A DNA stretch of 64,000 bases from a virus. Its lineage: Duplodnaviria; Caudoviricetes. Of this stretch, positions 4,675 to 31,641 are shown one piece after another (positions within the stretch are counted from its first letter, which is position 1; each line of letters starts with the position of its first letter). The stretch lies in IMG/VR virus record IMGVR_UViG_3300020577_007013; one strand, written 5' to 3'. The notes under the pieces were generated by a model. It worked only from the letters and a program-made list of their open reading frames with translations, was not told the origin of the DNA and searched no databases. The translations under genes were made by a program, and so were the position numbers.

Positions 4675-4946
4675 TATTCCTCCACTATAGGCTTTTCAGC
4701 TTCTTCTAAATCAGGCTCGTCATCTTCAGTGTCTACAAATTGACCAATTTCTACCATATCGATCATAAGACAGTAGACAGTTTCACAGCAGTCTAGAAAT
4801 TGCTCTTCTGAAATGGACTCGAATGGTATTTTTAATGTGTTGAGAATTGAAAGAACAGTGGAGATTTCGAGAGGGATTTCTCCCTCTCCTATCTCTTCAG
4901 ATTCTTTAGGTTCTATGTAACCTTGAAGTATCTCTTTTGCTGTCAT
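4674..4946 (-). CDS. hypothetical acidic protein, paralog of 4426-4674
   Basis: translationally coupled to both neighbours; shared CCE motif. Confidence 0.6.
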   Translation of the reverse strand: MTAKEILQGYIEPKESEEIGEGEIPLEISTVLSILNTLKIPFESISEEQFLDCCETVYCLMIDMVEIGQFVDTEDDEPDLEEAEKPIVEE

Positions 4947-5902
4947 TCTTCCTCTGAAGACTCGATCTCTTGATCTACTTCCGATTCCTCTACTTGAGAA
5001 ATAGGTTCAGATCCTTGAGCTTCTCTTCGACGTTGACGTCCTTCTTCAGAAGCATTAGCCATCTTCTCTATAGAGATCTCTCTATGATATTGAATGACTT
5101 TCTGTTTGATTTCTTCACAAAGATCTCGGTTATCCATGAGCAGTTGAGAACTTTTATCAAGTCCTTGCCCTAATCTCGTTTCACCGTATGCATACCAGCT
5201 TCCTGATTTTTTTACGATTTTGATCTTTTCTGCTTCTTCAATTATAGATCCTTCTTTGTTAAAGTAACCGTCAAACATGAGATCGAATTCAGCAATCTTA
5301 AATGGAGGTGAGACTTTATTTTTTACGAACTTAGCTCTCACTCTATTACCGATTTGATTATCACCTTTCTTTAGTGACTCAATTTTAGCGACTTCAATTC
5401 TTTGTGAAGCAAAGAACTTAAGAGCTTTACCACCACTCGTTGTTACTGGAGATCCGTAAGAGTTATGGGAAAGAATTCCGTTTGTAAAAAGATTATGATT
5501 GTCTTCGACCTCAAGATCATAGACTTTAATTTTTTCTTCAGTCTTCTCAATTTGACCTGTCTTCCAATTTCCATTTTCAAATAAATAGAAGTTTCCATTA
5601 TACTTTGAATATAAGAGACCTACTTCTAGATAAGAAGAGAACTCTGAAGATTTATCCAATCTGGCAGAAAGTCTATGTTCTTTTGAGACTTCTAATTTTC
5701 CATTTACTAAATATTTTTCACTATCAGGCTTCCTCATAAGCCTTTTAATTTTCTTGAATTCTTCTTGTTTTGTCGTGTGGTTAAAAGACTTGACTTTGAT
5801 CTCTTTATCAGAAATGTCTATAGACTCGTTCTCCTTCAAAGAAGTCTCATCTATTCCTATTTTTGAGAATAGTTCTCCCATTTTTATTTTTTCAGTTACC
5901 AT
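4943..5902 (-). CDS. recA: split-intein C-fragment (147 aa) fused to the C-terminal half of RecA
   Basis: intein block B SKEH, block F VYDLEVEDNHNLFTNG, terminal HN/S junction, then RecA SYGSPVTTSGGKALKFFASQRIEV...KNKVSPPF...KSGSWY; RBS AGGGGA upstream. Confidence 0.92.
   Translation of the reverse strand: MVTEKIKMGELFSKIGIDETSLKENESIDISDKEIKVKSFNHTTKQEEFKKIKRLMRKPDSEKYLVNGKLEVSKEHRLSARLDKSSEFSSYLEVGLLYSKYNGNFYLFENGNWKTGQIEKTEEKIKVYDLEVEDNHNLFTNGILSHNSYGSPVTTSGGKALKFFASQRIEVAKIESLKKGDNQIGNRVRAKFVKNKVSPPFKIAEFDLMFDGYFNKEGSIIEEAEKIKIVKKSGSWYAYGETRLGQGLDKSSQLLMDNRDLCEEIKQKVIQYHREISIEKMANASEEGRQRRREAQGSEPISQVEESEVDQEIESSEEE
5462..5902 (-). mobile_element. split intein C-terminal fragment (IntC)
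   Basis: residues 1-147 end in ILSHN; Asn codon at 5462-5464 followed by Ser+1. Confidence 0.88.
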
Positions 5903-6851
5903 TTGATTCCCCTTGTATTTTTTCAGATTTTATAAATTCGAATAGCTCGTTTTTACATTTTTCGTAATTGTTCATTAAGTCCATTTCCCAAATTATGTAG
6001 TATCTGTAATTATTTTCTAATATCCATTGCTTTTTCCTTATATCATTCACGAGATTTGATTTTTGAAAGTTGTTTAATTCTACAGAAGATGTATAAATTC
6101 TAGGATTTGAATGAACATAATCCCCATTAACTTCAATGACAGTCTTATCATTAACTAAAAAATCCACACGATAATTTTTACAAAGATACCTTTCTCTTCT
6201 AAAATCAACCTTAGCTTCAAGAAGAATGTCGAAGACCATTCTCTCTATTCTAGTCATCTTTTTATTAATGGGATTCGGCTCTCCTAAAATTTTTAATTTG
6301 TAGTTTTTCCAAAGTTTTTTGAGAACTTTAGAAGAGATCTCATAAGATATACAAAGCTGATTCCAAGTCATGAGTCTTGTGTCATTAAGAAAATTTTTCC
6401 ATTTCTCTACACTCCAATTTTTAATTTGACTGGGAGACTTAGTGGTCGTCTCCTTAAGTCTCTTTTTAAGTTCTTTGTTTTCTCTAAAAAATCCAGTAAG
6501 TCTTTTAGAAGAATAAAAAGAGAGTCCTAATTCTTCCCAGATAATCCATAGTTTATGGGTATGGGGAGTGGAGTTAATGTAGTCTACGAGAATCATTTTG
6601 TCTTTTTCTGTTAGCTCTCTTCTTTTTAAAAGTTTTGTTTTTTTAACTTTAGAGACTCTTTCAGGAGAGTGCTTTACCCCTAAAAGAGAGTCTCTAATTT
6701 TCTTTCCAACTTCAGGTCTTTTGGTTCCTAAAATTCTCCTTCCAGTTAATTGTCCTAAACACTTTCGACTGCATACTTTTTTCTGTCTGACTTTTAAAAT
6801 TGACTCACAGACTTCACATTTTCTTTCCACATAGATTAGTTCATTAATCAA
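5892..6851 (-). CDS. free-standing homing endonuclease, Vsr-like/DUF559 PD-(D/E)xK type, between the recA halves
   Basis: N-terminal CxxC...CxxxC and NUMOD-like segment; C-terminal YRVDF...IEVNGDYVH...DIRK...IIWEMD. Confidence 0.85.
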   Translation of the reverse strand: MINELIYVERKCEVCESILKVRQKKVCSRKCLGQLTGRRILGTKRPEVGKKIRDSLLGVKHSPERVSKVKKTKLLKRRELTEKDKMILVDYINSTPHTHKLWIIWEELGLSFYSSKRLTGFFRENKELKKRLKETTTKSPSQIKNWSVEKWKNFLNDTRLMTWNQLCISYEISSKVLKKLWKNYKLKILGEPNPINKKMTRIERMVFDILLEAKVDFRRERYLCKNYRVDFLVNDKTVIEVNGDYVHSNPRIYTSSVELNNFQKSNLVNDIRKKQWILENNYRYYIIWEMDLMNNYEKCKNELFEFIKSEKIQGESNGN

Positions 6852-7541
6852 TTAGAATTGAATTTCGAGTTCAGTATTACTACTGAAACAACCAATATTA
6901 CTTCTAGTTTGGTTAATGAATACCAACGTTGTGTTTGTCTTCTGAACTGCTGCTGTAAGCTTTCTAAGAGCTTGACCCATAAGTCTCGCTAAGATCGCCA
7001 TGTGTGCATCACCCATGTCTCCTTCAGCTTCTGCTCTAGGTACAAGTGCAGCGACTGAGTCGACTACTACAATGTCTAGACCACCTGATTTTACGAATGC
7101 ATCAACGATCTCTAATGCTTGTTCAGCACCGTCAGGTTGACTGACTAAGAGTTCATCGACATTCACTCCTAATTTTCTTGCCCAAACTGGATCTAATGCA
7201 TGTTCTACGTCGACAAATGCACAAATACCGTCATTCTTTTGGGCTTGAGCTATAAGATTGAGTACAAGTGATGTTTTTCCACTAGATTCATTCCCATAAA
7301 TCTCTATGATCCTTCCTCTAGGAAATCCACCTATTCCAGAAGCTATGTCAAGAGAAAGAATATCAGTTTCTATATGAGGAAAATCGATTCTATTTGAATC
7401 CATCCTCATGATAGTTCCTTGTCCGTAAGCTTTTTCTAAGAGAAGTATTGCCGGATCTAGACTCTTCAACCTCTCTATTTTTGAAAGCCTAGGTATTGAT
7501 TCTGCAGTCTTAGAGACTACATCATTAAATGTTTCTGCCAT
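6852..7541 (-). CDS. recA: N-terminal half of RecA fused to IntN
   Basis: [49 protein letters not shown]. Confidence 0.95.
6855..6890 (-). mobile_element. split intein N-terminal fragment (IntN, 12 aa [12 protein letters not shown])
   Basis: block A start CFSxxT directly after Rec[11 protein letters not shown], followed by a TAA stop. Confidence 0.85.
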
Positions 7542-12946: not shown

Positions 12947-13230
12947 TAAAACTCTATCGTTCCTGTAGATTCGTAGACAATAAGCTTGTCAGTAAGCTCT
13001 CTCGAAAGATTATGAATCTCTAAAATTGTAAGAGACTCTTTTCGAGAGTATGGGAAACAAAGAGCTCGTATTGATTTTTTCACACAAAGAAGATTTCTTT
13101 CATGTTCAGTAAGAACTGTGTCATTCTCTATTTGTTCATTAAAATTTTTGACAAGCTCCTTAAACGTATCTATGAAAACCATAGGGTCTTTTTCCCAAGT
13201 CTCTCTTAATGTGATTGTCTCAAGTGCCAT
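12946..13230 (-). CDS. hypothetical protein
   Basis: coupled ORF in the operon. Confidence 0.55.
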   Translation of the reverse strand: MALETITLRETWEKDPMVFIDTFKELVKNFNEQIENDTVLTEHERNLLCVKKSIRALCFPYSRKESLTILEIHNLSRELTDKLIVYESTGTIEF

Positions 13231-15085
13231 TTAGCAGCCTACTGATGTCTTCTTCAGAAAGTTCTTTATTGAGATAAGAATCATTAAACTCAGCTCTACT
13301 AAGATTTCTATTGACCCTAACTGCGTCAATCGTGTCATCAAAAACAAAGATTGTCACGATTGTGTCCTTTTCTGAAGTAATTCGATAAGTTCTGTCGAGT
13401 GCTTGTCGATAGTCTGTAGTATTCCAAGGAGTGGTGAAGAAGACCACTTTGTGTGATCCTTTTTGGAGATTGATCCCAGTACTTGAAGTGAGAGATGAAA
13501 GGAGAATAAGTTTACACTCAGAATTCCTGTCATTAAAGATGTCTTGAGCTGACTGTCGTTCTTGCTCTGTGGTGTTTTTGCTTCCATGAATTGTGATTGG
13601 TTTGTATTTATAATAACGTTCTTCCAACATGTCTAAAGTTAGTGGATGAGTGTCAAAGACTACGACCTTTTCATTACAGTCTTCTATGCTCTCTCTTAAA
13701 TACTCATCTAAGAACTCAAGCCTAGGATCATCTGAAAAGTCATATCTCGAAAGAAGCTTATTAATGTAGTCATTTCTTGATTTTGCTTCTAGAAGTAAAG
13801 TGTTATCAACCGTTTGACACACCTTGGTAAAGTATTTGAAGATATTTCCTGTTGTAATTCTTCTACCATTTGCTTTATTTTCTGCAGTCTCTTGATTTGA
13901 AAAGTATTCATATATTTGCTTTTGGATAGGGTTCAGTTCTACATAAAGTTTCTTGACAATTCTCCTAGTCTTCATTTCTGGAAGGTCTTCTTTGATCCTC
14001 TTAATGCAATTCATTTTAAGTCGATCTTTGTATTCAAGAATCTTCTGTTCATTATAGGACTGAATAGCCCAAGGATTAAACGGATCTCCGATTCTCTTAG
14101 CAATTGAGATAAGAAATGAGCCTTCAGTTTGATTAAAAATGAAGGGGTCAAGTAACTTCATCTGGAAGTAAAACTCTTCAAAACGATTGATTGAAGGAGT
14201 CCCTGACAAAAATCCTCTGTAATCGAATTCTGATATGAAGCATTCGATAGCTTTGCTCATTGTAGCATTTGAGTTCTTAAAGCAATGAGCCTCGTCTATG
14301 ATAAGCTGAATACTTTTCTTTTTCCATTTATCTTTAATTGAAAAATACTTCCTACTCCATCTCCTATCAGAATTATTGATTCTTTTAAGTTTTCCTTTTT
14401 TCTTGTCGAATTTCTTCTGTTGCTTTCTATAAGAGACCATAATATCAGCAACCAGATGATTTGGAGTTATAATGAGTTTTTTATCAATAGCATTCTCAAA
14501 AAGATTCTTCTTATTCTCGTTATTGACGAGTAGTATGTCTTCTTTCTTGAAGACATTTGAAAACATGAGAGTCTCTTTAAGCCAATGATACGAAAGACCA
14601 TTTTTTGAAATTAAGAAAATTGCATCGATTTTCCCTTCTTTGAAAAGTTGAGACATGACGGTTATGGTCTCAATCGATTTTCCGAGTCCACAATCCAACA
14701 TATTGTAGAATCTAGTGCGTCCAAGAAAAAACTTTATGTCTTCCTTTTGATAGTCAAAAAGTTGAGTTCCTTCAGTCAGAACTGATTCATCTAACTGAGC
14801 TCCTCTAAAAAATTGGGTTTCTCTTTTATAAAGAGATGTTTCTAGTCTCTTTGCTTCGTCAAAGACTCCCCTATTCTTATATTGAATTTCCCATTTGAAA
14901 TAGTCACACCAATGTATGAACTCTAAAAATGAGTCTCTTTTGAAGATGTGACAGTCTAGGTCTTTATCATATTTAAAGTAAAGTACAGATGAAAGAACTT
15001 TGAAATCTTCAAAATCATAGAATGCGTAGTTTACTTTATCTTTGTAGACATAAAAAAGGGAGTTTGAATGGTCAACAATGAACAT
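13220..15085 (-). CDS. SNF2-family helicase/annealing ATPase
   Basis: LFDYQ, DCGLGKS, IIDEAH, SGTP, GINLQ, QALDRTYR. Confidence 0.9.
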   Translation of the reverse strand: MFIVDHSNSLFYVYKDKVNYAFYDFEDFKVLSSVLYFKYDKDLDCHIFKRDSFLEFIHWCDYFKWEIQYKNRGVFDEAKRLETSLYKRETQFFRGAQLDESVLTEGTQLFDYQKEDIKFFLGRTRFYNMLDCGLGKSIETITVMSQLFKEGKIDAIFLISKNGLSYHWLKETLMFSNVFKKEDILLVNNENKKNLFENAIDKKLIITPNHLVADIMVSYRKQQKKFDKKKGKLKRINNSDRRWSRKYFSIKDKWKKKSIQLIIDEAHCFKNSNATMSKAIECFISEFDYRGFLSGTPSINRFEEFYFQMKLLDPFIFNQTEGSFLISIAKRIGDPFNPWAIQSYNEQKILEYKDRLKMNCIKRIKEDLPEMKTRRIVKKLYVELNPIQKQIYEYFSNQETAENKANGRRITTGNIFKYFTKVCQTVDNTLLLEAKSRNDYINKLLSRYDFSDDPRLEFLDEYLRESIEDCNEKVVVFDTHPLTLDMLEERYYKYKPITIHGSKNTTEQERQSAQDIFNDRNSECKLILLSSLTSSTGINLQKGSHKVVFFTTPWNTTDYRQALDRTYRITSEKDTIVTIFVFDDTIDAVRVNRNLSRAEFNDSYLNKELSEEDISRLLNGT

Positions 15086-15088
15086 AGT

Positions 15089-17791
15089 CTATGCTGCATT
15101 TGGATATCTTGTCCAAAGTTTTTCATTTCTTAGATTGATACGTTCGACCATCTGTTTAAATTCATCAGGATTTTTTTTCCAATATTCATGCTTCTTTCCA
15201 AATCCCCAGATCTCACCGTATTTGATCTCAGCTTTTAACTTGACTTTACTACCTAACCGATTCTCATAATATTTTCTCGACATGCATTCTTTGAGAATTT
15301 CTACTACTTCGTCAAGTTCAGGAACGTAAGTCTCGACTAGAATTGAGTCATGAACATTAGAAAGAACTCTCGATCTAAAATCTCTCTTTCTAAATTCCTC
15401 TCTAATCGAGCACATTGCTAAGAGACATGTTTGACCAGAAGATCCTTGAATAGGAGCATTAATGACTCCATTCATCATAGAGTTCATCCGTTTACGTCTG
15501 TCTTTATTATTGCCATCTCTACCAATATAAGTCAATTCAGGAAATCTTCTTTTCTTTCCTGTAAGAGTCTTGACCCAACCTACTTTTTTAGCTTGAGTCC
15601 TAAAGTCATCCATATATTTTTTGAATTCAGGATACGTCTCATAGAAGACTTGAAGAAAAAGTTTAGCTGTTTCGATGTCTACACCAAGATTCGACTGTAA
15701 TCCGAATTCAGTAGATCCATATAGACACGAAAAAATAGTTGACTTTCCTTGACCTCGAATCTTTACAAATTCAGGTATCTCATCAATTTTAGCATATTGA
15801 AAGATTTCTTCGTATGTGTAAAATTTTCCAGTTTGTGGATTTATTTTACCTAATGCTTTCATCATCTGAGATGCAAGAAATGAGTGCATGTCCTTACCTA
15901 AAAGTAAGTTTTCTTCCAATGGTCCAGTACCACTAATTTGAGAAGCTTGTCCTACTTCCATGCCTTCATAGTCAGCTTCTATAAAGACATGATCTTTAAT
16001 CGGAAGAAATAGTTTACGAAAAGCTTCTTTCTTTGTAAAATTCTGAAAGTTAACTGAAGATCTCAGACCACCTCTAGAAGCCATCCTTCCAGTGTCTGTA
16101 CCTCCTAAGTCAAATCCACCATGAAGTCGATTATCATAGACAGAAGCTAAGAATCCGTCTTGTTCTTCTATTGGAACATCTATTAAGTCTTCATCTATTT
16201 CGAATAAAACTTTTTGCTTAAATTCCTCTTTAATGGTCTTATTTTTCTCTGCTTCAGCATCTCTAATTTGTGAGAGTTCTTTTTGTATATGATAGTAATG
16301 AGAGATCTTTTTAGCTAATGGAAATCCTTTCTCAGCATACATATCCATGATGTCTCTACCGAGTTGAAGATCTCCAGTTTTCGTTCTTAATTCATTTCCT
16401 TCTTCATCTTTAAGAACTTTGAAACCAGGAACTTTCTCTAAGACTTTCGTAAGTTCTTTCTTACTATTGAGATTAAAAGATCTTCCAGCAAGCTTATAGA
16501 TTTCGTCTTCAATTTCTCTGGCTTCTTTTTTCATTGAGTCAGCATATTCATTAAGATAGACACGATCCAACTGAATTCCAGTATATTCGACCTCAATGAT
16601 CATGTCAGTTGCCTTCATCATGACATTATAGAAATTGTTTCTCACGTCTTCGTCTTCTTCTAAGAGTCGTTTTTCAAAATATTTCTTAAGAATATAGGTA
16701 ATTATCGCATCTGTACAAGCGTATTCTAAAAGAATGTTAATCGGTACTTTTGTAAAATTTTTCCTGACTTCCTCATCATTTAGAGATTTCTTCAACTTCG
16801 TCTCATAACCACCATACTTTGTGAAAATCCAAGTGTTCGGTTTTAGACCTTTTGGTTTATTCTCATTGAGAATGTAGGAAGCATACATTGTGTCAAAATC
16901 ATTTCTAGCATTATGTATACCATTAGCTTTCAAGAATTTTACGTCGAATTGTCCATTCTGAAAAATGAAACAAATTCTTTTTAATGCGAAAAGCTGAATG
17001 AGAAGATCTTTATCGATGTCTTTGAAAAAAGCAAAATGTCCGTCAGTCTCATTAAATGCAAATTGTATACTGTATAATTCATCTCTATAGTAATCTAATC
17101 CCGAAGTCTCGATATCGACAGATAAGTCTATGATTGATTCATCTGCTATGATTTTTCTAATGAACTCATTGGGATCTTCTAATTTAATATAATTGAGTTT
17201 CGGAATTCTTGCTTTCGGTTGAATTGCTAATTCACATGCTAGTTGAATTTGTTTTTTTGTATGATCAAATTCAAATACGTCCAATATAGCGTTATTGCTA
17301 TTCCATGTAAATAAAGCAGGGAGTGGAACCACGTTACATTTGAACTCAGGAGAATAAAGATATTTCTCATCCTTATGAAGAGAAAAGAAATGATCAGGCT
17401 TGAGATCTTTCATTTCAGTAATTGTATAAAGAGAACGTCCAGTAGTCACAATTACTTTCGGATTGTATTCGAGAATTCTTTTCTTAATGTTTGCTGCTTT
17501 ACAAGTAGAATAAGTATTTACTGTATCTCCTGAACTAAATCCTTTCGGAGTACAACCGAGACCAGGAATTATTGCATACTTGAATTTGTCTTTTAGTGTA
17601 TGTCTGACAAGAGAAGCAAAATTTTTATTTAGATTGTCTCTTTCTTTGAATTCTAGAAGAAAAAGAATATCGACTTCTCCGGTCTTCTCACCATCAAATG
17701 TCTGATTGTAAGTATACTCGAATATTGCTTCCTTATTCGCTGCACAATGACAGTTCGCTACAAATTGTCTTTTGAAAAAATCTTGTTTCAT
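15089..17791 (-). CDS. family A DNA polymerase with N-terminal UDG-like domain and 3'-5' exonuclease
   Basis: PKVIVTTG (UDG-like), DIETSG/FDVKFL/YACTD exonuclease motifs, TDTGRMAS, ADYEGME, KSTIFSCLYG, NAPIQG, VHDS. Confidence 0.93.
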   Translation of the reverse strand: MKQDFFKRQFVANCHCAANKEAIFEYTYNQTFDGEKTGEVDILFLLEFKERDNLNKNFASLVRHTLKDKFKYAIIPGLGCTPKGFSSGDTVNTYSTCKAANIKKRILEYNPKVIVTTGRSLYTITEMKDLKPDHFFSLHKDEKYLYSPEFKCNVVPLPALFTWNSNNAILDVFEFDHTKKQIQLACELAIQPKARIPKLNYIKLEDPNEFIRKIIADESIIDLSVDIETSGLDYYRDELYSIQFAFNETDGHFAFFKDIDKDLLIQLFALKRICFIFQNGQFDVKFLKANGIHNARNDFDTMYASYILNENKPKGLKPNTWIFTKYGGYETKLKKSLNDEEVRKNFTKVPINILLEYACTDAIITYILKKYFEKRLLEEDEDVRNNFYNVMMKATDMIIEVEYTGIQLDRVYLNEYADSMKKEAREIEDEIYKLAGRSFNLNSKKELTKVLEKVPGFKVLKDEEGNELRTKTGDLQLGRDIMDMYAEKGFPLAKKISHYYHIQKELSQIRDAEAEKNKTIKEEFKQKVLFEIDEDLIDVPIEEQDGFLASVYDNRLHGGFDLGGTDTGRMASRGGLRSSVNFQNFTKKEAFRKLFLPIKDHVFIEADYEGMEVGQASQISGTGPLEENLLLGKDMHSFLASQMMKALGKINPQTGKFYTYEEIFQYAKIDEIPEFVKIRGQGKSTIFSCLYGSTEFGLQSNLGVDIETAKLFLQVFYETYPEFKKYMDDFRTQAKKVGWVKTLTGKKRRFPELTYIGRDGNNKDRRKRMNSMMNGVINAPIQGSSGQTCLLAMCSIREEFRKRDFRSRVLSNVHDSILVETYVPELDEVVEILKECMSRKYYENRLGSKVKLKAEIKYGEIWGFGKKHEYWKKNPDEFKQMVERINLRNEKLWTRYPNAA

Positions 17792-19101
17792 TAATAGAGC
17801 TTCACTTGAGTACAGTTAAGTTTTTGACCGAAATCATTTAACTCGAAGAATAATTGATCTTCGTTCACCCAATTAGCTATATTATAGTTTTCTTTATTTA
17901 TGAAAATAATTGTGTTTGCTTTCTTAACTGAGCTTTCTAAGTCTTCTACTAAAATGTCTTTGATCTGTCCTAATTGAGGAATCAAAGTCTTTGAGTTCGT
18001 TCCGTCTTTTAGAGATTCAGTAACATTGAAGTCATGAACCATGACATTAAAAGTCTTCTCCTCTTTTAAGAGTTTATTGACAAGAGTCACATTAGGACTC
18101 ATCCTCACATCATCCGTTCCTTCTTTAAAGGAGAGTCCCAAAACAAGAACAGTATGCTTTGTAATATTGCTTAGAAGTCTATGGGTGAGAAGCAATTGCC
18201 TAAAGACTGATTCAATTTTCTCTTCATTACTTTGTTCGATTCTGCTGAATAAATTATGCTTACTAGAATGTAAAGCTGATAGAGCACGTAAATCCTTCGG
18301 AAGACATGATCCACCGTATGCAAAACCAGGACTCAAATACTTGGAAGATATATTGAGCTGAGTATCTCGTTTAAAAAGTTCCATTACTGAGTCGGAGTCT
18401 ATTTTATTTTCTCTACAAATCTGTGAGACTTCATTTGCAAACACAATTTTAAGAGCATGCCAAGAATTATTTACCATTTTGATAATCTCAGCTTCTTCAG
18501 CTTTACAGAATTTGACTTCTGATTTTGTCTTGTAAATATCTCTGCATATTGACTCCACAAATTCATTTTCCTCTCTGAGCCCAAATAATGTGAAAGGAGG
18601 ATTCATGAAGTCTTGAATAGCTTTTCCTTCTCTAAGAAACTCAGGATTCATGACGACATCGAAGTCTTTACTGATCTTCTTTCCAGAAGAGTTCTCTAGA
18701 ATAGAAGCCACATTTCTAAGAGCTCCTGGCATTACAGTACTACGAATTGCTATGAGATGAAACGTAGTCTTTTCTGACAAGACCTTTCCAATATTGTCTG
18801 CTACTTTATAGATTGCTGTAAGATCAAGTTCTCCGTTGAATTTATTTGGAGTTCCTATGCAAATAAGTGAAAGATCGGTATTGAGAATTGCATCCTTGAC
18901 TGAATTTGTTGCTTTTATAAATTGCTTATTGACTCTAAATAAGTCGTCTAGACCATTTTCTTTGATAGTCGGCTTTCCATTGTTAATGAGATCTATTTTC
19001 GACTCATCTATGTCTACACCTAGGACATCATGTCCCATATCAGAAAGACATCCTATATTAACACATCCGACATATCCTAAACCGAATACTGAGATTTTCA
19101 T
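17791..19101 (-). CDS. GDP-mannose/UDP-glucose 6-dehydrogenase (AlgD-like)
   Basis: GLGYVG, NPEFLREG, NSWHALKIVFANE, PGFAYGGSCLPKD, GLSFKEGTDDVRMSP. Confidence 0.92.
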   Translation of the reverse strand: MKISVFGLGYVGCVNIGCLSDMGHDVLGVDIDESKIDLINNGKPTIKENGLDDLFRVNKQFIKATNSVKDAILNTDLSLICIGTPNKFNGELDLTAIYKVADNIGKVLSEKTTFHLIAIRSTVMPGALRNVASILENSSGKKISKDFDVVMNPEFLREGKAIQDFMNPPFTLFGLREENEFVESICRDIYKTKSEVKFCKAEEAEIIKMVNNSWHALKIVFANEVSQICRENKIDSDSVMELFKRDTQLNISSKYLSPGFAYGGSCLPKDLRALSALHSSKHNLFSRIEQSNEEKIESVFRQLLLTHRLLSNITKHTVLVLGLSFKEGTDDVRMSPNVTLVNKLLKEEKTFNVMVHDFNVTESLKDGTNSKTLIPQLGQIKDILVEDLESSVKKANTIIFINKENYNIANWVNEDQLFFELNDFGQKLNCTQVKLY

Positions 19102-19640
19102 TATTTTACCTCTATATGTTCCACTGAGATTCCGTTTGATTTCATTAATTCAAGACCTTGAGTCTCTCTATCATAAACTTCAGAGTAGACCACTCTCTTG
19201 ATTCCTGATATAATAATCACTTTTGAACAAGCTAGACAACTCGATAATGTAATGTAAAGAGTTGAGTCCTTTAATTGTTCTCTATCAGCAAATAAGATCG
19301 CATTCTGTTCTGCATGAAGTTCATTCAAACTAGAGAAATGTCCATGAGCATCATAGAACTCTTGAGTTCCTTTCCATTTCTTGTAAGCAAGCTCTATATC
19401 AAAATGCTCTTCTGTAGGGTATCTAAATAAAGGGTTTGTCCCGTCTCTCCATACAGACTCTGAGAATACATTCTTGAAATGATCGCAACAATGAAGACTC
19501 TTACTAGAAGATCCGTTCCATCCCGTTGATATAATCCTTTTATTTTTCGTAATTACTGCTCCGACATTCACTCTCGCACACGTAGAGTTCTCTGCTACAA
19601 TTTTAGCAATCTTTAGAAACCTTAGATCTTTCTCAATCAT
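19101..19640 (-). CDS. dCMP deaminase
   Basis: VGAVI, TGWNG, HAEQNAI, SCLACSK. Confidence 0.92.
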   Translation of the reverse strand: MIEKDLRFLKIAKIVAENSTCARVNVGAVITKNKRIISTGWNGSSSKSLHCCDHFKNVFSESVWRDGTNPLFRYPTEEHFDIELAYKKWKGTQEFYDAHGHFSSLNELHAEQNAILFADREQLKDSTLYITLSSCLACSKVIIISGIKRVVYSEVYDRETQGLELMKSNGISVEHIEVK

Positions 19641-20334
19641 TCTTTTTCTCTACAAATGAGTCTAGGATTTTGAAGTGTCTTTCATAAATGTGCATGCTAG
19701 AAGTATAGAAAAACAGTGACCCGACTTCGAGTTTCAAATCTTCTGCAAGCTTCCTAAGTAAATAGCCGAACCAATAGATATCGTACGAAAAACCAAAAAT
19801 AAGATCGGTACTTCTCATAAAAACTCTTGAATTAAGTTTTCCTTCTTTAACTCTGAATGTCTGATTCAATGTACAAACAAAGTCTTTGTTTCCGTCATAT
19901 TTATGTTTAGGCTGATTGTAGTTAATGACGGCTTGTCGAGATTCTATATCATCTCTAAAACATTTTAAACACCAATCGTATTGGCTCATTCCATTAAGAG
20001 TCTCTTTGAATACTATGAATCCGTAATTTGAGTTAAGCTTTCCGAAAGGACTTTCGATTTTACCCCAAAATGATGAATGTTTTTTGATTCCTTCAGAATC
20101 CAATGTTCCGTTCAAGTACCATTCCATTTCTCCTTTAAGATAATCCATTGAAAGGTCTCGTTCAGGGAGAGTTATTGTGCAATTTGTCTCAGTAGGATCT
20201 GTAATCTCTATGAAAACGTCCTCTAACTCGATAGTCTTAAGACCTCTAGGAGAAGAGTTCAGACCATTGTAATTTAGCTCGCAACAGACTTGACTAAAGA
20301 TTCCGTTAGCGTCTTTGTCTCTAAGTTCAGTCAT
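19633..20334 (-). CDS. thymidylate-synthase-fold dCMP hydroxymethylase-like enzyme
   Basis: NYG, RQAVI, DFVCT catalytic Cys, MRSTD...GFSYD (Asp at the base-specificity position, as in T4 gp42), HIYERH. Confidence 0.8.
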   Translation of the reverse strand: MTELRDKDANGIFSQVCCELNYNGLNSSPRGLKTIELEDVFIEITDPTETNCTITLPERDLSMDYLKGEMEWYLNGTLDSEGIKKHSSFWGKIESPFGKLNSNYGFIVFKETLNGMSQYDWCLKCFRDDIESRQAVINYNQPKHKYDGNKDFVCTLNQTFRVKEGKLNSRVFMRSTDLIFGFSYDIYWFGYLLRKLAEDLKLEVGSLFFYTSSMHIYERHFKILDSFVEKKND

Positions 20335-21403
20335 TTTCTTTTAATCCCCAAATTATTGACTCAAATTTATCTACATGATCTCTGAGTTCATAGTGTTGAA
20401 TTTTTTCAGCAAAATTATAATAAAGTTTGTGTAGATCTAAGTTATTTAGCTTCCAAAGAAGTTCATCACCATCTTTAATAATCTGGTCTTCTACAACGTA
20501 TTCCTCTATGTGATCTATTTTATCATAGACGAATACAGGAATTCTCGCCATTCTAGCTTCGAATAAACGAATTGAGATCAATCCGATCTCTTGTTGTCTT
20601 TTATTTGAACAATGAACAGTAGCTTTTGACATCGCCAACAATGGCAAGGTAGTCCAGTGTTCTGTTGATCCAAACCAAATATTGTTAGGAAAATTGTCAA
20701 GTGAAAAATCCCGATCATCGTATTTCTTTCTTAGCCAATTTCCAGCGACTGCAATGGATTTTCCAGCATCATGAGTAGGTTTGAGAAGTCTACAGAAGTC
20801 ATCCCTTCTTTCATACACATTTCCACAATATGAAAGATCAAACTTCTTAGAAGGAAGACTCCACTCATCAAAGATATCACACCAAGTCCACATAAAGAAG
20901 TGTTCTGAGTTAAACGTCCTAGGATCGATCTTATTATGATAAGCTCTTAGAAGATTAATGTGGCTACAATACTTATCTGGAATCTGTATACACCATCCTT
21001 CTCTGTCCTGGACAAAGACCTTCCTACCTTTACTTATGAAATAATCTATTAAAGTGACTTGAGTCTCGCATTCCTTTTCAAAATTGTATCCCTCTTTCGA
21101 GATAAAAGGTCTGAGCTCTATATAAAGAATACCATCTTCTTTCAAATCATCATCTGTAAATGTAGGTCCAATATCTTGGACTCTATGTCTGACTGACAAT
21201 CTATAATTGTCTTCTGTAAGATTAAAAGCTTTGACTAAATTGTTCTCAGTTCGATTTTTATATTCATACCCAAGCCACTTGACATTGCAACGTCTATTGA
21301 CGAGTTCGTTAAGGAATGGAATACGACTGTAAGATCCACCATCGACTCCTGAGTATAAGTTATCAAGGTGTCCTGCACCGAAATAATAGATTGTTTTTTT
21401 CAT
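20327..21403 (-). CDS. GT-B glycosyltransferase, T4 beta-glucosyltransferase-like (putative DNA glycosyltransferase)
   Basis: FDLSYCGNVYER and ISIRLFEA segments match the BGT/GT-B C-terminal domain pattern; coupled to the hydroxymethylase gene. Confidence 0.65.
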   Translation of the reverse strand: MKKTIYYFGAGHLDNLYSGVDGGSYSRIPFLNELVNRRCNVKWLGYEYKNRTENNLVKAFNLTEDNYRLSVRHRVQDIGPTFTDDDLKEDGILYIELRPFISKEGYNFEKECETQVTLIDYFISKGRKVFVQDREGWCIQIPDKYCSHINLLRAYHNKIDPRTFNSEHFFMWTWCDIFDEWSLPSKKFDLSYCGNVYERRDDFCRLLKPTHDAGKSIAVAGNWLRKKYDDRDFSLDNFPNNIWFGSTEHWTTLPLLAMSKATVHCSNKRQQEIGLISIRLFEARMARIPVFVYDKIDHIEEYVVEDQIIKDGDELLWKLNNLDLHKLYYNFAEKIQHYELRDHVDKFESIIWGLKEND

Positions 21404-22380
21404 TAATTGTATCCTTTATGAGTCTTTTCGAATAGATAACACATCATAGATCCATTATCTTCTAAAAGAAGACTTGTCATATATTGAGCCAATGGAACTG
21501 GGAGAAATTTGGAGAGTCTTTTATACTCTTTTGTCTCCCCTAATTTAGCATGATTTACAATTTTCTTTGTCCACCAAGGAAAAGACTCAAGTTTATTAAA
21601 AATAAACCTATAATCATAATGTTCAGAAAAATACATGTCAATTTCTTTCTCAGTATACTCAACTTTATGGTCATCTGGCCACACTAAGAATTCCCCTATC
21701 TCCTTTCTAGGATTAGGAGTGGTCATAAATAGTTCCCCTTTAAAATAGAGCAGATCCCAAAGATTCTGAATAAAATCCAATAAAGTAGTGTCTATGTGTT
21801 CAAAGACCTCAGCTAAGACAATAATATCGTAAAACTCTATGACAGAATATCTCCAAGGTTCTACTGTCTTAGGTCTAACTGAATTAGGAAGAGCATTATA
21901 GTTCGGACCCAAAGTTCTACTAAAACTGAATAGATCAGACTTAAGTACATTTCTCCCTTTTGACTGAGCTTCATCGACATAAGTTTGATTTCCATCAATT
22001 CCGATATAATTGACATTTATTGAATTCTCTTTTCCGAAAAATTTAAAGTTATGAATAAAATCTGATAAGAGTCCTAAACTACAACCAACATCTAGAAGCC
22101 TGATATGAGACTTTTTTGTTTTAAGACTATAGTTCTCTATCATTCTGCACACATTTAAGTGTCTCATTAAGAGTCCTATTGACCATGTAGAGTTCCAATC
22201 AAAATTGTCAATATTTTTTTGGAGATATTTAAAAGAGTTATCTTGAAGAAGATCAATTTCTTTTTTCTGTTCTGTGACAATTGCCTGATCTTCAGTTAAG
22301 GTTTTTTCCGAGACTCTCGACACGAACTGTTCAAAAGTCTTGTCCTCAAATTGAGGTTCTTTGTCTAGTAGTACAGCCAT
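21403..22380 (-). CDS. class I SAM-dependent methyltransferase
   Basis: LLDVGCSLG, YIGID, YDIIVLAEVFEHI, GELFMTTPN. Confidence 0.85.
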   Translation of the reverse strand: MAVLLDKEPQFEDKTFEQFVSRVSEKTLTEDQAIVTEQKKEIDLLQDNSFKYLQKNIDNFDWNSTWSIGLLMRHLNVCRMIENYSLKTKKSHIRLLDVGCSLGLLSDFIHNFKFFGKENSINVNYIGIDGNQTYVDEAQSKGRNVLKSDLFSFSRTLGPNYNALPNSVRPKTVEPWRYSVIEFYDIIVLAEVFEHIDTTLLDFIQNLWDLLYFKGELFMTTPNPRKEIGEFLVWPDDHKVEYTEKEIDMYFSEHYDYRFIFNKLESFPWWTKKIVNHAKLGETKEYKRLSKFLPVPLAQYMTSLLLEDNGSMMCYLFEKTHKGYN

Positions 22381-22381
22381 T

Positions 22382-23422
22382 TTATGCTTCCTTTATTAAC
22401 TCAGTCTTGTGATATCGAAAATATGAAGGATGATAATAAGCTGTGTGTTCGACTCCATTCTTTGATAATAATTCATGTGAAGGCTTTCCGAATGAGACAA
22501 TTCGCTTAGGTTTGAGTACATTTATTTGAGCTGTCAAAAGTCTTTCACAATATTGTATTTCATCACTCGTTGGTGGCCTGTCTTTCTCTGTACTAAACTT
22601 AACTATGTTCGTGAATGAGAACTGTTTATTGTTCAAACCGAATTCAGACTGTGCGAATTTAGAAAGAAACTTGTAGAAAGTAGATTTGAAATAACTTTTA
22701 TGATGCTCGAACTCGAAGTCCTTGTACTTCTGAAAAACTTTTGTGTGAACTGGAATGTCCTCCACCTGGTTTTCAGTTGGTCTTCCTGGATTTTGTCCTA
22801 CAAATAAGATTTCGTCTCCGTAAAAAAGACCCGGAAAAAAGATTCTTCCTTCAGTAGATTTATCTCGATAAATGTTTGTGTTCAGAACTTCAAGAACCTT
22901 GTGCCTATCAATGAAAGACATTATCATCTCAAGTTGAGCTTCAAGATCTTGAGAATCTGTATTAAGCATAAGTACCTTATTGTAGGATCGATTGATGATC
23001 TCAAGATACCTCTCTTCAGCTTGTTTCTTCAAATCGATGGGAGTCTCTTCGTCCTTATAATCTTTGATTTCTGTCTTATAGCAATAGACTATGACAGTAT
23101 CTCTCTTGAAGTATTCTAGATCAAATTGAAGACAAGTACTGAGAATGGATTTGGAAAGAAAATCCTCTTGTCTTTTCAGATAGCCATATACAAATTCACT
23201 CATATAGTCACGATCAAAAATAATGTCCTTAATGAATCGTTGATCATAGTATTGAAAAAATTTCGGTATACAATATCTGAAAGAGTCTTCGAAGTTGAAA
23301 TTTTTGATCAATGAAAGATTCGATTTGTCATTTGTCATGAGAGGCATGAACATTTTTTTAGACAAAGCTTTAGCGATAGTTGATTTACCGCAGTTGTCGA
23401 ATCCTTCAAAGATAATGATCAC
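22382..23422 (-). CDS. dNMP (thymidylate-type) kinase fused to a family-4-like uracil-DNA glycosylase domain
   Basis: IIFEGFDNCGKST and DRDYMSEFVYG kinase motifs; LFVGQNPG, TNIVK, KPKRIVSFG, YHPSY UDG motifs. Confidence 0.85.
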   Translation of the reverse strand: MIIIFEGFDNCGKSTIAKALSKKMFMPLMTNDKSNLSLIKNFNFEDSFRYCIPKFFQYYDQRFIKDIIFDRDYMSEFVYGYLKRQEDFLSKSILSTCLQFDLEYFKRDTVIVYCYKTEIKDYKDEETPIDLKKQAEERYLEIINRSYNKVLMLNTDSQDLEAQLEMIMSFIDRHKVLEVLNTNIYRDKSTEGRIFFPGLFYGDEILFVGQNPGRPTENQVEDIPVHTKVFQKYKDFEFEHHKSYFKSTFYKFLSKFAQSEFGLNNKQFSFTNIVKFSTEKDRPPTSDEIQYCERLLTAQINVLKPKRIVSFGKPSHELLSKNGVEHTAYYHPSYFRYHKTELIKEA

Positions 23423-23425
23423 TTC

Positions 23426-23584
23426 TTAATGCACCAAGCTTTTGAGTTTTTCTTCACCATATTTGAATGCTTGAGTAGCCATTATGAGTCTCATTCCTTC
23501 TTCACACTTTTCTCTAGAAGAGAACTCTTGAGAACGTGAATCAAAGCCATGTGTACCTGCAAGTATCCAAAATAAGATCCACAT
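23426..23584 (-). CDS. small hypothetical protein (52 aa)
   Basis: MWILFWILAG...LKSLVH fills the gap between dUTPase and kinase; below the ORF-track cutoff. Confidence 0.5.
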   Translation of the reverse strand: MWILFWILAGTHGFDSRSQEFSSREKCEEGMRLIMATQAFKYGEEKLKSLVH

Positions 23585-23587
23585 AAA

Positions 23588-24034
23588 TTATGATCCTGTA
23601 CTTCCGAAGCCACCGGTAGATCTTTCAGTATTAATTGAGATATTTTCTACCATTTTCGGTGTGCCATCCCAAATCGGTACAACAATACCTTGACAAACTT
23701 TTTCTCCACTATGAAAGAAGGCCGTTTCAGTCTTCGACGTATTGTGTAGATGAGCGTGCACAATTCCTCTATAGTCAGCGTCAATTACACAAGCAAGTAT
23801 TTCAAGCTTCTTTTTGGTTGCTAATCCACTTTTTTCTTTCATAATAAGAGCATACCCTTTAGGAAATTCAGTCTTAATTCCTAAAGGTATCAATGCGTCT
23901 TCTCCTGGATTAATGTGAAAATCTGTAGGCGTATAGAAATCGAGTCCAGCAGAATCTCCTGTTCCTCTAGTCGGCATTTTCGCATACTTGTCTACAAGTT
24001 CGATATTCAGATAAAAATCTTCAAACATTGTCAT
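23588..24034 (-). CDS. dut: trimeric dUTPase
   Basis: AGLDF, KSGLA, VIDADYRG, RSTGGFGSTG. Confidence 0.93.
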   Translation of the reverse strand: MTMFEDFYLNIELVDKYAKMPTRGTGDSAGLDFYTPTDFHINPGEDALIPLGIKTEFPKGYALIMKEKSGLATKKKLEILACVIDADYRGIVHAHLHNTSKTETAFFHSGEKVCQGIVVPIWDGTPKMVENISINTERSTGGFGSTGS

Positions 24035-30001: not shown

Positions 30002-30397
30002 ATGTATCACGTCTCACTCAACGATGTCACAGCAATTAAAAAAATCCAAGAACATTACAAAAATAATTTTGACATAAAGAACATAGCTCAAGAGATACTT
30101 CAAAATTCTTTAAATGAAAATCAGAAAGGGGAGATGTTCATAAGTGATAAACTCATTCTCTTCCGTGTGTATCTAGGAACTCAGGAATTGGTCGATCTCA
30201 CGGAGACTAAGATCAATCAAGGAATAGAGTTCGCAAAACTATGTCAACAAAACAAAAAAGCCAGATTAGATTCATTAGAAAAAATTCGACCATCGAAAAA
30301 ACATGGAAGAGGATTTCTCAGTATACTATATCATGGTTGGGACTTGGTTACCTTACCAAATCACACGGAAGTATTGATAGCGGCGATAAAAGCTTAA
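30002..30397 (+). CDS. hypothetical protein
   Basis: 131-aa ORF following 29440-30000. Confidence 0.5.
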   Translation: MYHVSLNDVTAIKKIQEHYKNNFDIKNIAQEILQNSLNENQKGEMFISDKLILFRVYLGTQELVDLTETKINQGIEFAKLCQQNKKARLDSLEKIRPSKKHGRGFLSILYHGWDLVTLPNHTEVLIAAIKA

Positions 30398-31641
30398 AAG
30401 AACAACTCTACGACATAAGTTTTGATACCTCGAAGAGAATAAAACTCTTTTCTCTTCTAATCAGACTCTTCATTTCTATCTTACTTCTCATAATCTTAGC
30501 CATCGACGTTCATATAGGACTCTATCCTATTGAGAGCTCAGTCTCCCCTCTCTCAATTCTTTTTATTTACACACTTCTAGTGATCTATATGCTTAATTTG
30601 TGTAAAAAATCAGAAAGTTTCAAGTCTCTCAATGGAGTAATGGACATTGTCTATGTGACATGTGAAATTCTCGCTGTATACTTTGCTATTCTAACATTTC
30701 CGACTCATCCAGCAAATATGTATTCTAATTCACTTAAAGGATTCTGGTCGGTCCTTATTGTTCTCTCAGTCTTCACAGGAAAATGGTATTATGGATTTTA
30801 TTCAGGAGGATTGGTCGCCGTTCTCAATGCTTCCACTGCTTACTTCTACTCAAAGATTAAAAGAGATTTTGAAATTGTAGGAATTGACTTTCAGAAAGTT
30901 GATCCTCTCTTTCAAATTTTCGTTTGGTCTCTATATTATTTTTTACAAGGAGCTCTTATCTCTTTTCCATTTTATCTTTTTAGGAAACAACAGTCTATGG
31001 CTCTGAATGCAAAAACAGAGAATATTGTAGCAAGACCCTATTATGACTTATGTTTGGAAGACGGTCAACATTTAGTCGGAGATTATCTCATCAATAAGGT
31101 CTCTTCATCTAATGACGTAATCGGTGCTGATTTTACTTCTATGAAGCCTACAATTGCAGACCATTGTTATGGTGCCTTAATTATAGGAGATGTGATAGGA
31201 CACGGTCTCAATAGAAGTCCAGGTGCAATTATTGCTATGGCAGCTTTTAAGTCTTGTTACACTACTGATCCGGTTTACGTTCAAGAAACGATAAATAGAG
31301 TTCTTGTTGATGTCGATAAGTCTAGTGGTGGGAAGGCAATCTGCCTTTCTATTAGGCTCATGGAAAATGGAATTATAGAATACTCTGGAAAAATTGATAG
31401 TTTTACTTTAGTGGAAAAAGAGAATGTTAGGTCAATTTCACTTTCTTCAAAAGGAGAGATTCTAGGAATTCAGCCTCTTCTATTGGTTACTGAAAAAAGT
31501 GTAATCTCTATGAATGTAGGAGACTCACTTTATCTCAAGACTGACGGGATTCATGATCTTCAAGATGACAAGACCGTTGTAATTATCACTAGATTGTCAG
31601 ACGAAGAGAGACTCGCTATTTCTGAGAGTTCGAAAGACTAG
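30241..31641 (+). CDS. multi-TM PP2C/SpoIIE-family Ser/Thr phosphatase
   Basis: about 6 TM helices, then IGADF, IIGDVIGHG, TDGI, DDKTVVII; start codon uncertain. Confidence 0.8.
   Translation: MSTKQKSQIRFIRKNSTIEKTWKRISQYTISWLGLGYLTKSHGSIDSGDKSLKEQLYDISFDTSKRIKLFSLLIRLFISILLLIILAIDVHIGLYPIESSVSPLSILFIYTLLVIYMLNLCKKSESFKSLNGVMDIVYVTCEILAVYFAILTFPTHPANMYSNSLKGFWSVLIVLSVFTGKWYYGFYSGGLVAVLNASTAYFYSKIKRDFEIVGIDFQKVDPLFQIFVWSLYYFLQGALISFPFYLFRKQQSMALNAKTENIVARPYYDLCLEDGQHLVGDYLINKVSSSNDVIGADFTSMKPTIADHCYGALIIGDVIGHGLNRSPGAIIAMAAFKSCYTTDPVYVQETINRVLVDVDKSSGGKAICLSIRLMENGIIEYSGKIDSFTLVEKENVRSISLSSKGEILGIQPLLLVTEKSVISMNVGDSLYLKTDGIHDLQDDKTVVIITRLSDEERLAISESSKD

Follow-up and report, generated by a model that had tools for sequence, protein, structure and literature searches.

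A predicted operon for cytosine hypermodification in an uncultured jumbo phage, with a candidate acidic sugar on 5-hydroxymethylcytosine

The T-even phages decorate their DNA with glucosylated 5-hydroxymethylcytosine (hmC) by means of a set of proteins that in T4 comprises gp42, gp1, gp56, Cd, alpha-gt and beta-gt, and gene 42 of T4 adjoins b-gt. We analysed a 64,000-nucleotide stretch of DNA from an uncultured tailed phage (IMG/VR record IMGVR_UViG_3300020577_007013; hereafter, the window), in which an operon at positions 17791-24034 has in common with the T-even system a gp42-type signature, a deoxynucleoside monophosphate (dNMP) kinase, a deoxycytidylate (dCMP) deaminase and a gene for a glycosyltransferase (GT) of the GT-B fold beside that for the hydroxymethylase. 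The window differs from T4 in that its GT lies outside the PF09198/beta-glucosyltransferase (BGT) family, its kinase is thymidylate kinase-like and fused to a uracil-DNA glycosylase (UDG) domain, and its replicase is PolA; it also adds an AlgD-type dehydrogenase and a methyltransferase, and no gp56-type dCTPase was seen in it. Pseudomonas aeruginosa AlgD aligns with the window's dehydrogenase end to end, although AlgD serves alginate synthesis whereas the phage gene is located in an operon for DNA metabolism.

Phages RB69 and DLP3, the DNA of which carries arabinosyl-5-hydroxycytosine, share with the window a thymidylate synthase (TS)-fold enzyme that acts on dCMP, a dNMP kinase, a nucleoside diphosphate (NDP)-sugar made by the phage, and DNA glycosyltransferases (PMC13326640). 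Their TS homologues contain the substitution D169N and make 5-hydroxycytosine (5hoC) with flavin, whereas the enzyme of the window keeps Asp169. Phage GTs from metavirome clusters were found to place varied sugars on hmC in E. coli, including a hexuronic acid (a product of 433 atomic mass units), and GT-B-like enzymes were found to associate with thymidylate synthase homologues, epimerases and methyltransferases (bioRxiv 10.1101/2023.12.21.572611). Unlike the situation in the window, hmC in those clusters arises after replication through a cytosine methyltransferase and a TET-type dioxygenase, and the sugar donors are supplied by the host or epimerised; the text of that preprint mentions neither GDP, nor a sugar 6-dehydrogenase, nor a methyl ester. 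The DNA of Bacillus phage SP-15 bears phosphoglucuronate on 5-dihydroxypentyluracil, as shown chemically, and one of its genes specifies a UDP-glucose dehydrogenase (PMC5977210). SP-15 resembles the window in having a uronic acid on phage DNA and its own NDP-sugar 6-dehydrogenase, which is 31.6% identical to that of the window; it differs in its thymine-derived base, its phosphodiester link and its UDP-glucose dehydrogenase, and its gene set resembles that for teichuronic acid synthesis. An earlier, sequence-only reading of the window had held that no such phage base was described, which was overstated given the hexuronic acid-hmC of the metavirome clusters and the glucuronate of SP-15: uronic acid on hmC is already precedented.

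The operon consists of eight open reading frames (ORFs) on the minus strand, the junctions of which are overlaps of 1-8 nucleotides or gaps of 1-3 nucleotides, and it is translationally coupled as one unit. Domains of its ORFs were assigned with Pfam, PHROGs and NCBIfam. The genes, in order of transcription and together with the polymerase gene that follows them, are listed here.

23588..24034, minus strand: trimeric dUTPase of the Dut type, first gene of the operon (PF00692, E 4e-21; TIGR00576, 108 bits, above cut-off)
23426..23584, minus strand: 52-amino acid ORF (weak match to phrog_5579, E 8e-4; a 49-amino acid counterpart in the relative L002)
22382..23422, minus strand: fusion of a thymidylate kinase-like P-loop dNMP kinase (residues ~1-180) with a UDG-superfamily domain (~181-346) (phrog_761, E 5e-10; PF03167, E 3.5e-14)
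21403..22380, minus strand: class I S-adenosylmethionine (SAM)-dependent methyltransferase (Methyltransf_23, E 6e-8)
20327..21403, minus strand: GT-B glycosyltransferase, predicted hmC-DNA glycosyltransferase (weak match to Glyco_trans_1_2, E 0.0097)
19633..20334, minus strand: predicted T4 gp42-type dCMP hydroxymethylase (5hmdCMP synthase) of the TS fold (Thymidylat_synt PF00303, E 1.3e-20; PDB 1b49)
19101..19640, minus strand: dCMP deaminase (dCMP_cyt_deam_1 PF00383, E 1.3e-21; phrog_174, E 2e-51)
17791..19101, minus strand: AlgD-type NDP-sugar 6-dehydrogenase, probably a GDP-mannose 6-dehydrogenase (UDPG_MGDP_dh domains PF03721, PF00984 and PF03720, E 5e-50, 9e-24 and 2e-10)
15089..17791, minus strand: family A DNA polymerase (PolA), overlapping the dehydrogenase gene by 1 nucleotide (PF00476, E 7e-60; PF01612, E 6e-20)

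The gene content that the sequence-only reading had described, from dUTPase, kinase-UDG and methyltransferase through GT, TS-fold enzyme and dCMP deaminase to a dehydrogenase leading into PolA, was confirmed, and the motifs that it quoted (MRSTDLIFGFSYD, DFVCT, WHALK.FANE, PGFAYGGSCLPKD and GLSFKEGTDD) were all found in the translations. There is no break between the operon and the genes for PolA and a SNF2 helicase (13220-15085), and a non-coding stretch of 420 nucleotides lies ahead of its first gene. A terminator scan gave matches no more numerous than those in shuffled sequence.

Megablast of the operon revealed no close relative among GenBank phages. The entire operon is retained, in the same gene order, in the near relatives L002 and L003 (88% identity) and in the more distant L014 (54-87% protein identity), and its arrangement is therefore not a matter of chance. 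Identity to L014 is 54% for the dehydrogenase, 64% for the methyltransferase, 80% for the GT, 87% for the TS-fold enzyme and 86% for PolA. A dehydrogenase identical to that of the window is encoded on a contig of 253,865 bp, so that the window derives from a jumbo phage; a 54%-identical protein is encoded, within the same operon, on a contig of 246,652 bp. The window is thus a member of a clade of jumbo phages represented solely in metagenomes.

On the basis of the residues, domains and gene neighbourhoods described below, we propose that this uncultured jumbo phage performs pre- and post-replicative cytosine hypermodification, with an acidic sugar placed on hmC, a proposal for which we see about as much reason to accept as to doubt. 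By analogy with T4, the gp42-like TS-fold enzyme would hydroxymethylate dCMP, the thymidylate kinase-like domain would phosphorylate the resulting 5hm-dCMP, host enzymes would convert the product to 5hm-dCTP, and PolA would incorporate it; the dUTPase and dCMP deaminase would balance the pyrimidine pools. After replication, again as in T4, the GT-B enzyme would put a sugar on the 5-hydroxymethyl group of the DNA. In the clade of the window, the AlgD-type dehydrogenase of the phage would oxidise GDP-mannose to GDP-mannuronic acid, and the DNA would come to carry mannuronosyl-5hmC. This sugar may in turn be methylated by the methyltransferase, and a methyl ester at the carboxylate would cancel the extra negative charge. 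In its most specific form, the proposal would have virion DNA contain 5-(mannuronosyl-oxymethyl)cytosine methylated at a carboxylate or hydroxyl, formed by a family of GDP-sugar-dependent GTs with no sequence relationship to those of T4, with the methyltransferase acting either on the DNA-attached sugar or on the GDP-sugar and with the UDG domain clearing uracil (U) or 5-hydroxymethyluracil (hmU); we consider it rather unlikely that all of these details hold together.

The gene neighbourhood is the strongest evidence for the role of the GT. In about 35 contigs representing three polymerase types, the GT is found beside a gp42-like gene, a thymidylate kinase-like kinase and some sugar-nucleotide enzyme. 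Phages with PolB (L001, L006 and L010) or PolIII-alpha (L011 and the P0019 contig), as well as L012, for which the stretch examined contains no polymerase gene, have the kinase adjoining the GT and often fused to UDG. A gp42-like gene lies near the GT in L001, L006, L010, L011 and the P0019 contig, but not in L012; within the flanks examined, no TS-fold gene was present in L004/L005, L007 or L012. A further 28 loci share the order TS-fold enzyme, kinase, GT, short-chain dehydrogenase/reductase (SDR) sugar-nucleotide enzyme, dCMP deaminase, and a pattern scan of IMG/VR gave one locus. The link between the GT and hmC synthesis drawn in the sequence-only reading is thus upheld, with a gp42-like gene and a dNMP kinase flanking the GT almost always, across the three polymerase types. 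That reading had also called for a search for co-occurrence of the hydroxymethylase, GT, dehydrogenase and methyltransferase; the first two recur together widely, whereas the dehydrogenase and methyltransferase accompany the GT in the clade of the window only. Given these neighbourhoods and the corresponding gene arrangement in T4, the GT would probably glycosylate hmC in phage DNA. Two PolIII-alpha phages with the same GT family, L004 and L007, also encode near the GT an isocitrate lyase and a release factor-like PCRF/RF-1 protein (L004, 7242-8516 and 12235-12940; L007, 7254-8525 and 9337-9999), with the isocitrate lyase being full length and scoring 624 bits, above the equivalog cut-off.

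One pointer to the identity of the sugar is the dehydrogenase. This protein matched P. aeruginosa AlgD (1mfz) with an E value of 4.7e-89 and 302 bits over residues 1-405 of 436, an alignment that includes PGFA.GGSCLPKD and in which the catalytic-Cys motif GGSCLPKD is conserved. Matches to the UDP-glucose dehydrogenase family reached at most 185 bits, and these alignments ended near residues 346-363, before most of the COOH-terminal nucleotide-binding domain. The AlgD likeness noted in the sequence-only reading is therefore sustained, and GDP-mannose is the most likely substrate as judged from these comparisons. Among database proteins, its closest relatives (44-54% identity) either carry the JGI name GDP-mannose 6-dehydrogenase or originate from Bacteroidota and other bacteria. 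The top match in a phage collection, H66, was set aside as an unverified faecal scaffold with an ORF layout suggestive of a bacterial polysaccharide locus. Literature searches for a GDP-mannose dehydrogenase or a uronic acid tied to phage cytosine modification returned nothing.

The AlgD-type dehydrogenase and the methyltransferase are found beside the GT, intact and at the same positions, only in the window and its relatives L002, L003 and L014, and the GT of this dehydrogenase-bearing clade alone shows two substitutions to arginine. The elsewhere nearly invariant WDQDGW has become QDREGW at residues 132-135 (Q134R and D135E, beside invariant D133), and FEALM has become FEARM (L284R, beside invariant R279 and E282). 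The positive charges of the two added arginines would fit an acidic donor. Whether the attached sugar is a uronic acid appears to us an evenly balanced question: of the uronic acid donor originally put forward, the AlgD-like enzyme stands, and the step from enzyme to donor draws on operon position, clade conservation and the two clade-specific arginines.

The enzymes that accompany the GT elsewhere vary with lineage. L004 has Gmd- and Fcl-like GDP-sugar enzymes next to it, L001 a GMP_PMI cupin fragment and L012 a GmhA-like isomerase, so that the GT family seems to accept whichever tailored donor its phage provides. The idea that all members use a GDP-sugar donor was rejected, given that the GT of a marine clade is paired with a GalE/TviC-like 4-epimerase rather than a GDP-sugar enzyme.

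This marine pairing is one of several observations that weigh against the proposed pathway. No genes for GDP-mannose supply were seen in the window. Nor did the 64-kb window contain a gp56-type dCTPase, in that tblastn of T4 gp56 gave only noise and the dUTPase did not align with that protein. The gain of the arginines in the GT is a single evolutionary event. Moreover, GT homologues at 52-58% identity (L006, L010 and L011) have no dehydrogenase nearby, and the GT family can therefore use another donor. This last finding favours the possibility that hmC is glycosylated with a neutral host sugar, either mannose from GDP-mannose or a UDP-hexose, and that the dehydrogenase and methyltransferase have a different role, such as draining or diverting host GDP-mannose, making a second decoration or acting on a non-DNA target. 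Such an arrangement would also be in keeping with the dehydrogenase being the least conserved gene of the operon relative to L014 (54%, against 80-87% for the GT, TS-fold enzyme and PolA) and with the methyltransferase having no informative relatives. However, both genes are translationally coupled inside the modification operon and have kept their positions in three diverged relatives, and it is exactly the GT of this clade that acquired two arginines next to invariant residues. We therefore regard a neutral sugar as unlikely, if still a serious alternative to a uronic acid.

The methyltransferase itself is a class I enzyme with an LDVGC SAM-binding motif, an EVFEH motif and a poorly modelled insert of 50 residues. 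It gave no match of the DNA methyltransferase type, and tblastn against GenBank phages returned nothing. An exhaustive HMMER search yielded four close homologues, all in its own clade, with the remainder being distant generic class I methyltransferases, and NCBIfam and fold searches were likewise generic only, which also counts against the pathway as proposed. Among the types considered was a carboxyl methyltransferase like CmoM, which would form a methyl ester at a carboxylate on the C5 side chain of a nucleic acid pyrimidine. Methylation of the sugar, as put forward in the sequence-only reading, did not gain support from the fold, which is generic; operon position and clade conservation suggest that the enzyme might methylate the sugar, an assignment that we make tentatively.

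We next consider the base to which the sugar would be attached. The best PDB match of the TS-fold enzyme, and thus its top-scoring solved relative, was T4 dCMP hydroxymethylase (1b49, E 1.8e-28), followed by the CMP hydroxymethylase MilA, with true thymidylate synthases at about E 1e-9. Alignment with T4 gp42 gave 32% identity (E 8e-35). A 2026 paper provides experimentally supported diagnostic positions in E. coli ThyA numbering: N177D for the choice of dCMP, L143D/E for a hydroxymethyl product, and D169N as the mark of flavin-dependent 5-hydroxy-dCMP synthases, including those of RB69 and DLP3, with the 5hoC synthases tested carrying Asn169 (PMC13326640). In the enzyme of the window, the catalytic Cys (C146 of ThyA) is present, with DFVCT aligned to DFMCT of T4, and the D of DFVCT lies over the D of DFMCT, placing Asp at the L143 position. 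The N177 position is also occupied by Asp (MRSTDLIFGFSYD aligned to T4 MRSNDVVFGFRND), and Asp169 is retained (RSTD...SYD). The same residue signature was apparent in T4 gp42 and in five other GT-linked or T4-like homologues that were aligned, and the Asp at the N177 position was invariant across six aligned GT-linked homologues. Given Asp at positions 143, 169 and 177, we place the enzyme as a 5hm-dCMP synthase rather than as a 5hoC synthase or methylase; no second thymidylate synthase was found in the 64-kb window. The gp42-like specificity for dCMP claimed in the sequence-only reading is thus supported both by Asp at the N177 position and by the top PDB match, and the phage would very probably make hmC by means of this predicted hydroxymethylase.

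The same reading had allowed for 5-hydroxy-dCMP. A TS-fold product of this type (the case of RB69 and DLP3), or 5-methyl-dCMP (the case of XP12), would leave the sugar ether-linked or absent, and it might be favoured by the presence of 5hoC synthases among those TS-fold homologues that have Asp at the N177 position (PMC13326640) and by the identity to T4 gp42 of just 32%. The D169N change present in all tested 5hoC synthases is, however, missing here, the Asp at the L143 position is that of hydroxymethylases as opposed to the bulky hydrophobic residue of methylases, and T4 gp42 outscores the other solved relatives. We therefore judge either product to be improbable.

The GT that would act on hmC belongs to a family with 42 homologues, every one of which is metagenomic; the family is confined to viral-type contigs, and tblastn against GenBank phages yielded no homologue. 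AlphaFold, applied to the alignment of homologues, gave a confident GT-B model (pLDDT of 94.2) with two domains and about 350 residues, as in the T4 BGT family. In the fold search, T4 BGT, PimA and BshA were tied at the top, and the acceptor and donor of the GT are therefore not discriminated by its fold. Language-model features placed the GT nearest to clusters carrying PF09198 (T4-Gluco-transf), with a score of 0.97. Two sequence comparisons run counter to a relation with BGT: PF09198 was matched by none of 37 members of the GT family (E values of up to 1), and hhalign of the family against T4 BGT gave a probability of 5.7%. On these grounds, membership by sequence in the T4 beta-glucosyltransferase family was ruled out, and tblastn of T4 BGT against the window gave noise only. 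Of the comparison with BGT made in the sequence-only reading, the GT-B fold is retained, T4 BGT being one of the equal-best matches, and the sequence family is not. In the low-probability hhalign alignment, the invariant GT residues G194, N195 and R200 fall on G188, S189 and R195 of BGT, and R279 and E282 fall on R269 and E272. These BGT positions, 188/189/195 and 269/272, are conserved residues of its COOH-terminal domain, to which we ascribe a role in donor binding.

The fold matches include lipid and small-molecule enzymes of the GT4 type, and the case for a DNA acceptor comes from gene context. The acceptors of PimA and BshA, together with the closest Pfam family (CgeB-like Glyco_trans_1_2, PF13524, matched by 26 of the 37 family members), would be compatible with action of the GT, dehydrogenase and methyltransferase on a virion or host protein, lipid or polysaccharide, in which case the proximity of the hmC genes would be incidental. 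Such proximity is hard to ascribe to chance for a family that is confined to viral-type contigs and that nearly always has gp42-like and dNMP kinase genes on its flanks in replication modules with three types of polymerase, and we consider a non-DNA target very improbable.

The kinase half of the kinase-UDG fusion contains FEGFDNCGKS, a P-loop of the form FEGFDNxGK(S/T), and DRDYMSE, of the form DRDYxSE, which we take to be thymidylate kinase signatures. Its UDG half contains GQNPG (motif A), FTNIVKFST and YYHP(S/A) (motif B, here YYHPS). The top PDB match of the protein was the family-4 UDG 4zbx. The match of the UDG domain to PF03167 (E 3.5e-14) was nevertheless accompanied by scores under the NCBIfam family-4 cut-offs, and motif A is GQNPG, the family-4 consensus being GE[AG]PG. 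The translation of residues 181-346 contains a single Cys, whereas family 4 requires four Cys ligands for its 4Fe-4S cluster, and the domain therefore cannot hold such a cluster. The Asn of motif A is presumably that of the catalytic type of MUG, TDG and SMUG enzymes. The fusion also occurs in L006 (8709-9758), L010 (6955-7998) and L012 (3835-4923), and either the fusion or separate kinase and UDG genes recur adjoining the GT across phages that differ in their polymerase. A role in repair or quality control, with removal of U or hmU from DNA containing hmC, is plausible for the UDG domain. That the modified base is instead a uracil derivative, with the dCMP deaminase turning 5hm-dCMP into 5hm-dUMP and the GT glycosylating hmU in a manner similar to base J, can be dismissed as highly improbable: every cassette has a dCMP deaminase nearby and the Asn-type GQNPG of the kinase-fused UDG domain resembles that of enzymes that handle U or hmU, but T4, too, encodes a dCMP deaminase and yet makes hmC DNA, a possibly active U/hmU glycosylase would be unlikely in a phage that keeps hmU, and the route is without precedent.

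Several other features of the window and its relatives were observed. A UvsX/RecA-like recombinase at 4943-7541 is encoded in two pieces (NH2-terminal, 6852-7541; COOH-terminal, 4943-5902), between which (5892-6851) lies a 319-amino acid ORF with a weak endonuclease-like match; the split gene looks like the result of an intein or homing endonuclease insertion. In both L002 and L003 (13610-17728), PolA is interrupted by an ORF of 325 amino acids that faintly matches a TnsA-like endonuclease, whereas the PolA of the window is intact at 900 amino acids. Its residues 1-200, which lie ahead of the 3'-5' exonuclease domain and amount to about 200 residues, gave no Pfam match and no PDB sequence match with phmmer. 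A SpoIIE/PP2C-type phosphatase domain (PF07228, E 1e-7) is encoded at 30241-31641, with the same position being occupied by it in L002, L003 and L014.

Decoration of hmC with sugars classically shields phages from restriction enzymes and CRISPR nucleases, and which defences work shifts with every new decoration. The GT family described here, widespread and known only from metagenomes, appears to be a third type of hmC-DNA transferase, in addition to the alpha and beta enzymes of T4. If the proposed pathway is correct, use of a GDP-mannuronate donor in place of a UDP-sugar would leave each modified cytosine negatively charged, and the methyltransferase could neutralise that charge. The pathway would then also offer enzymes for site-directed glyco-labelling of DNA and a new class of substrate for studies of type IV restriction.

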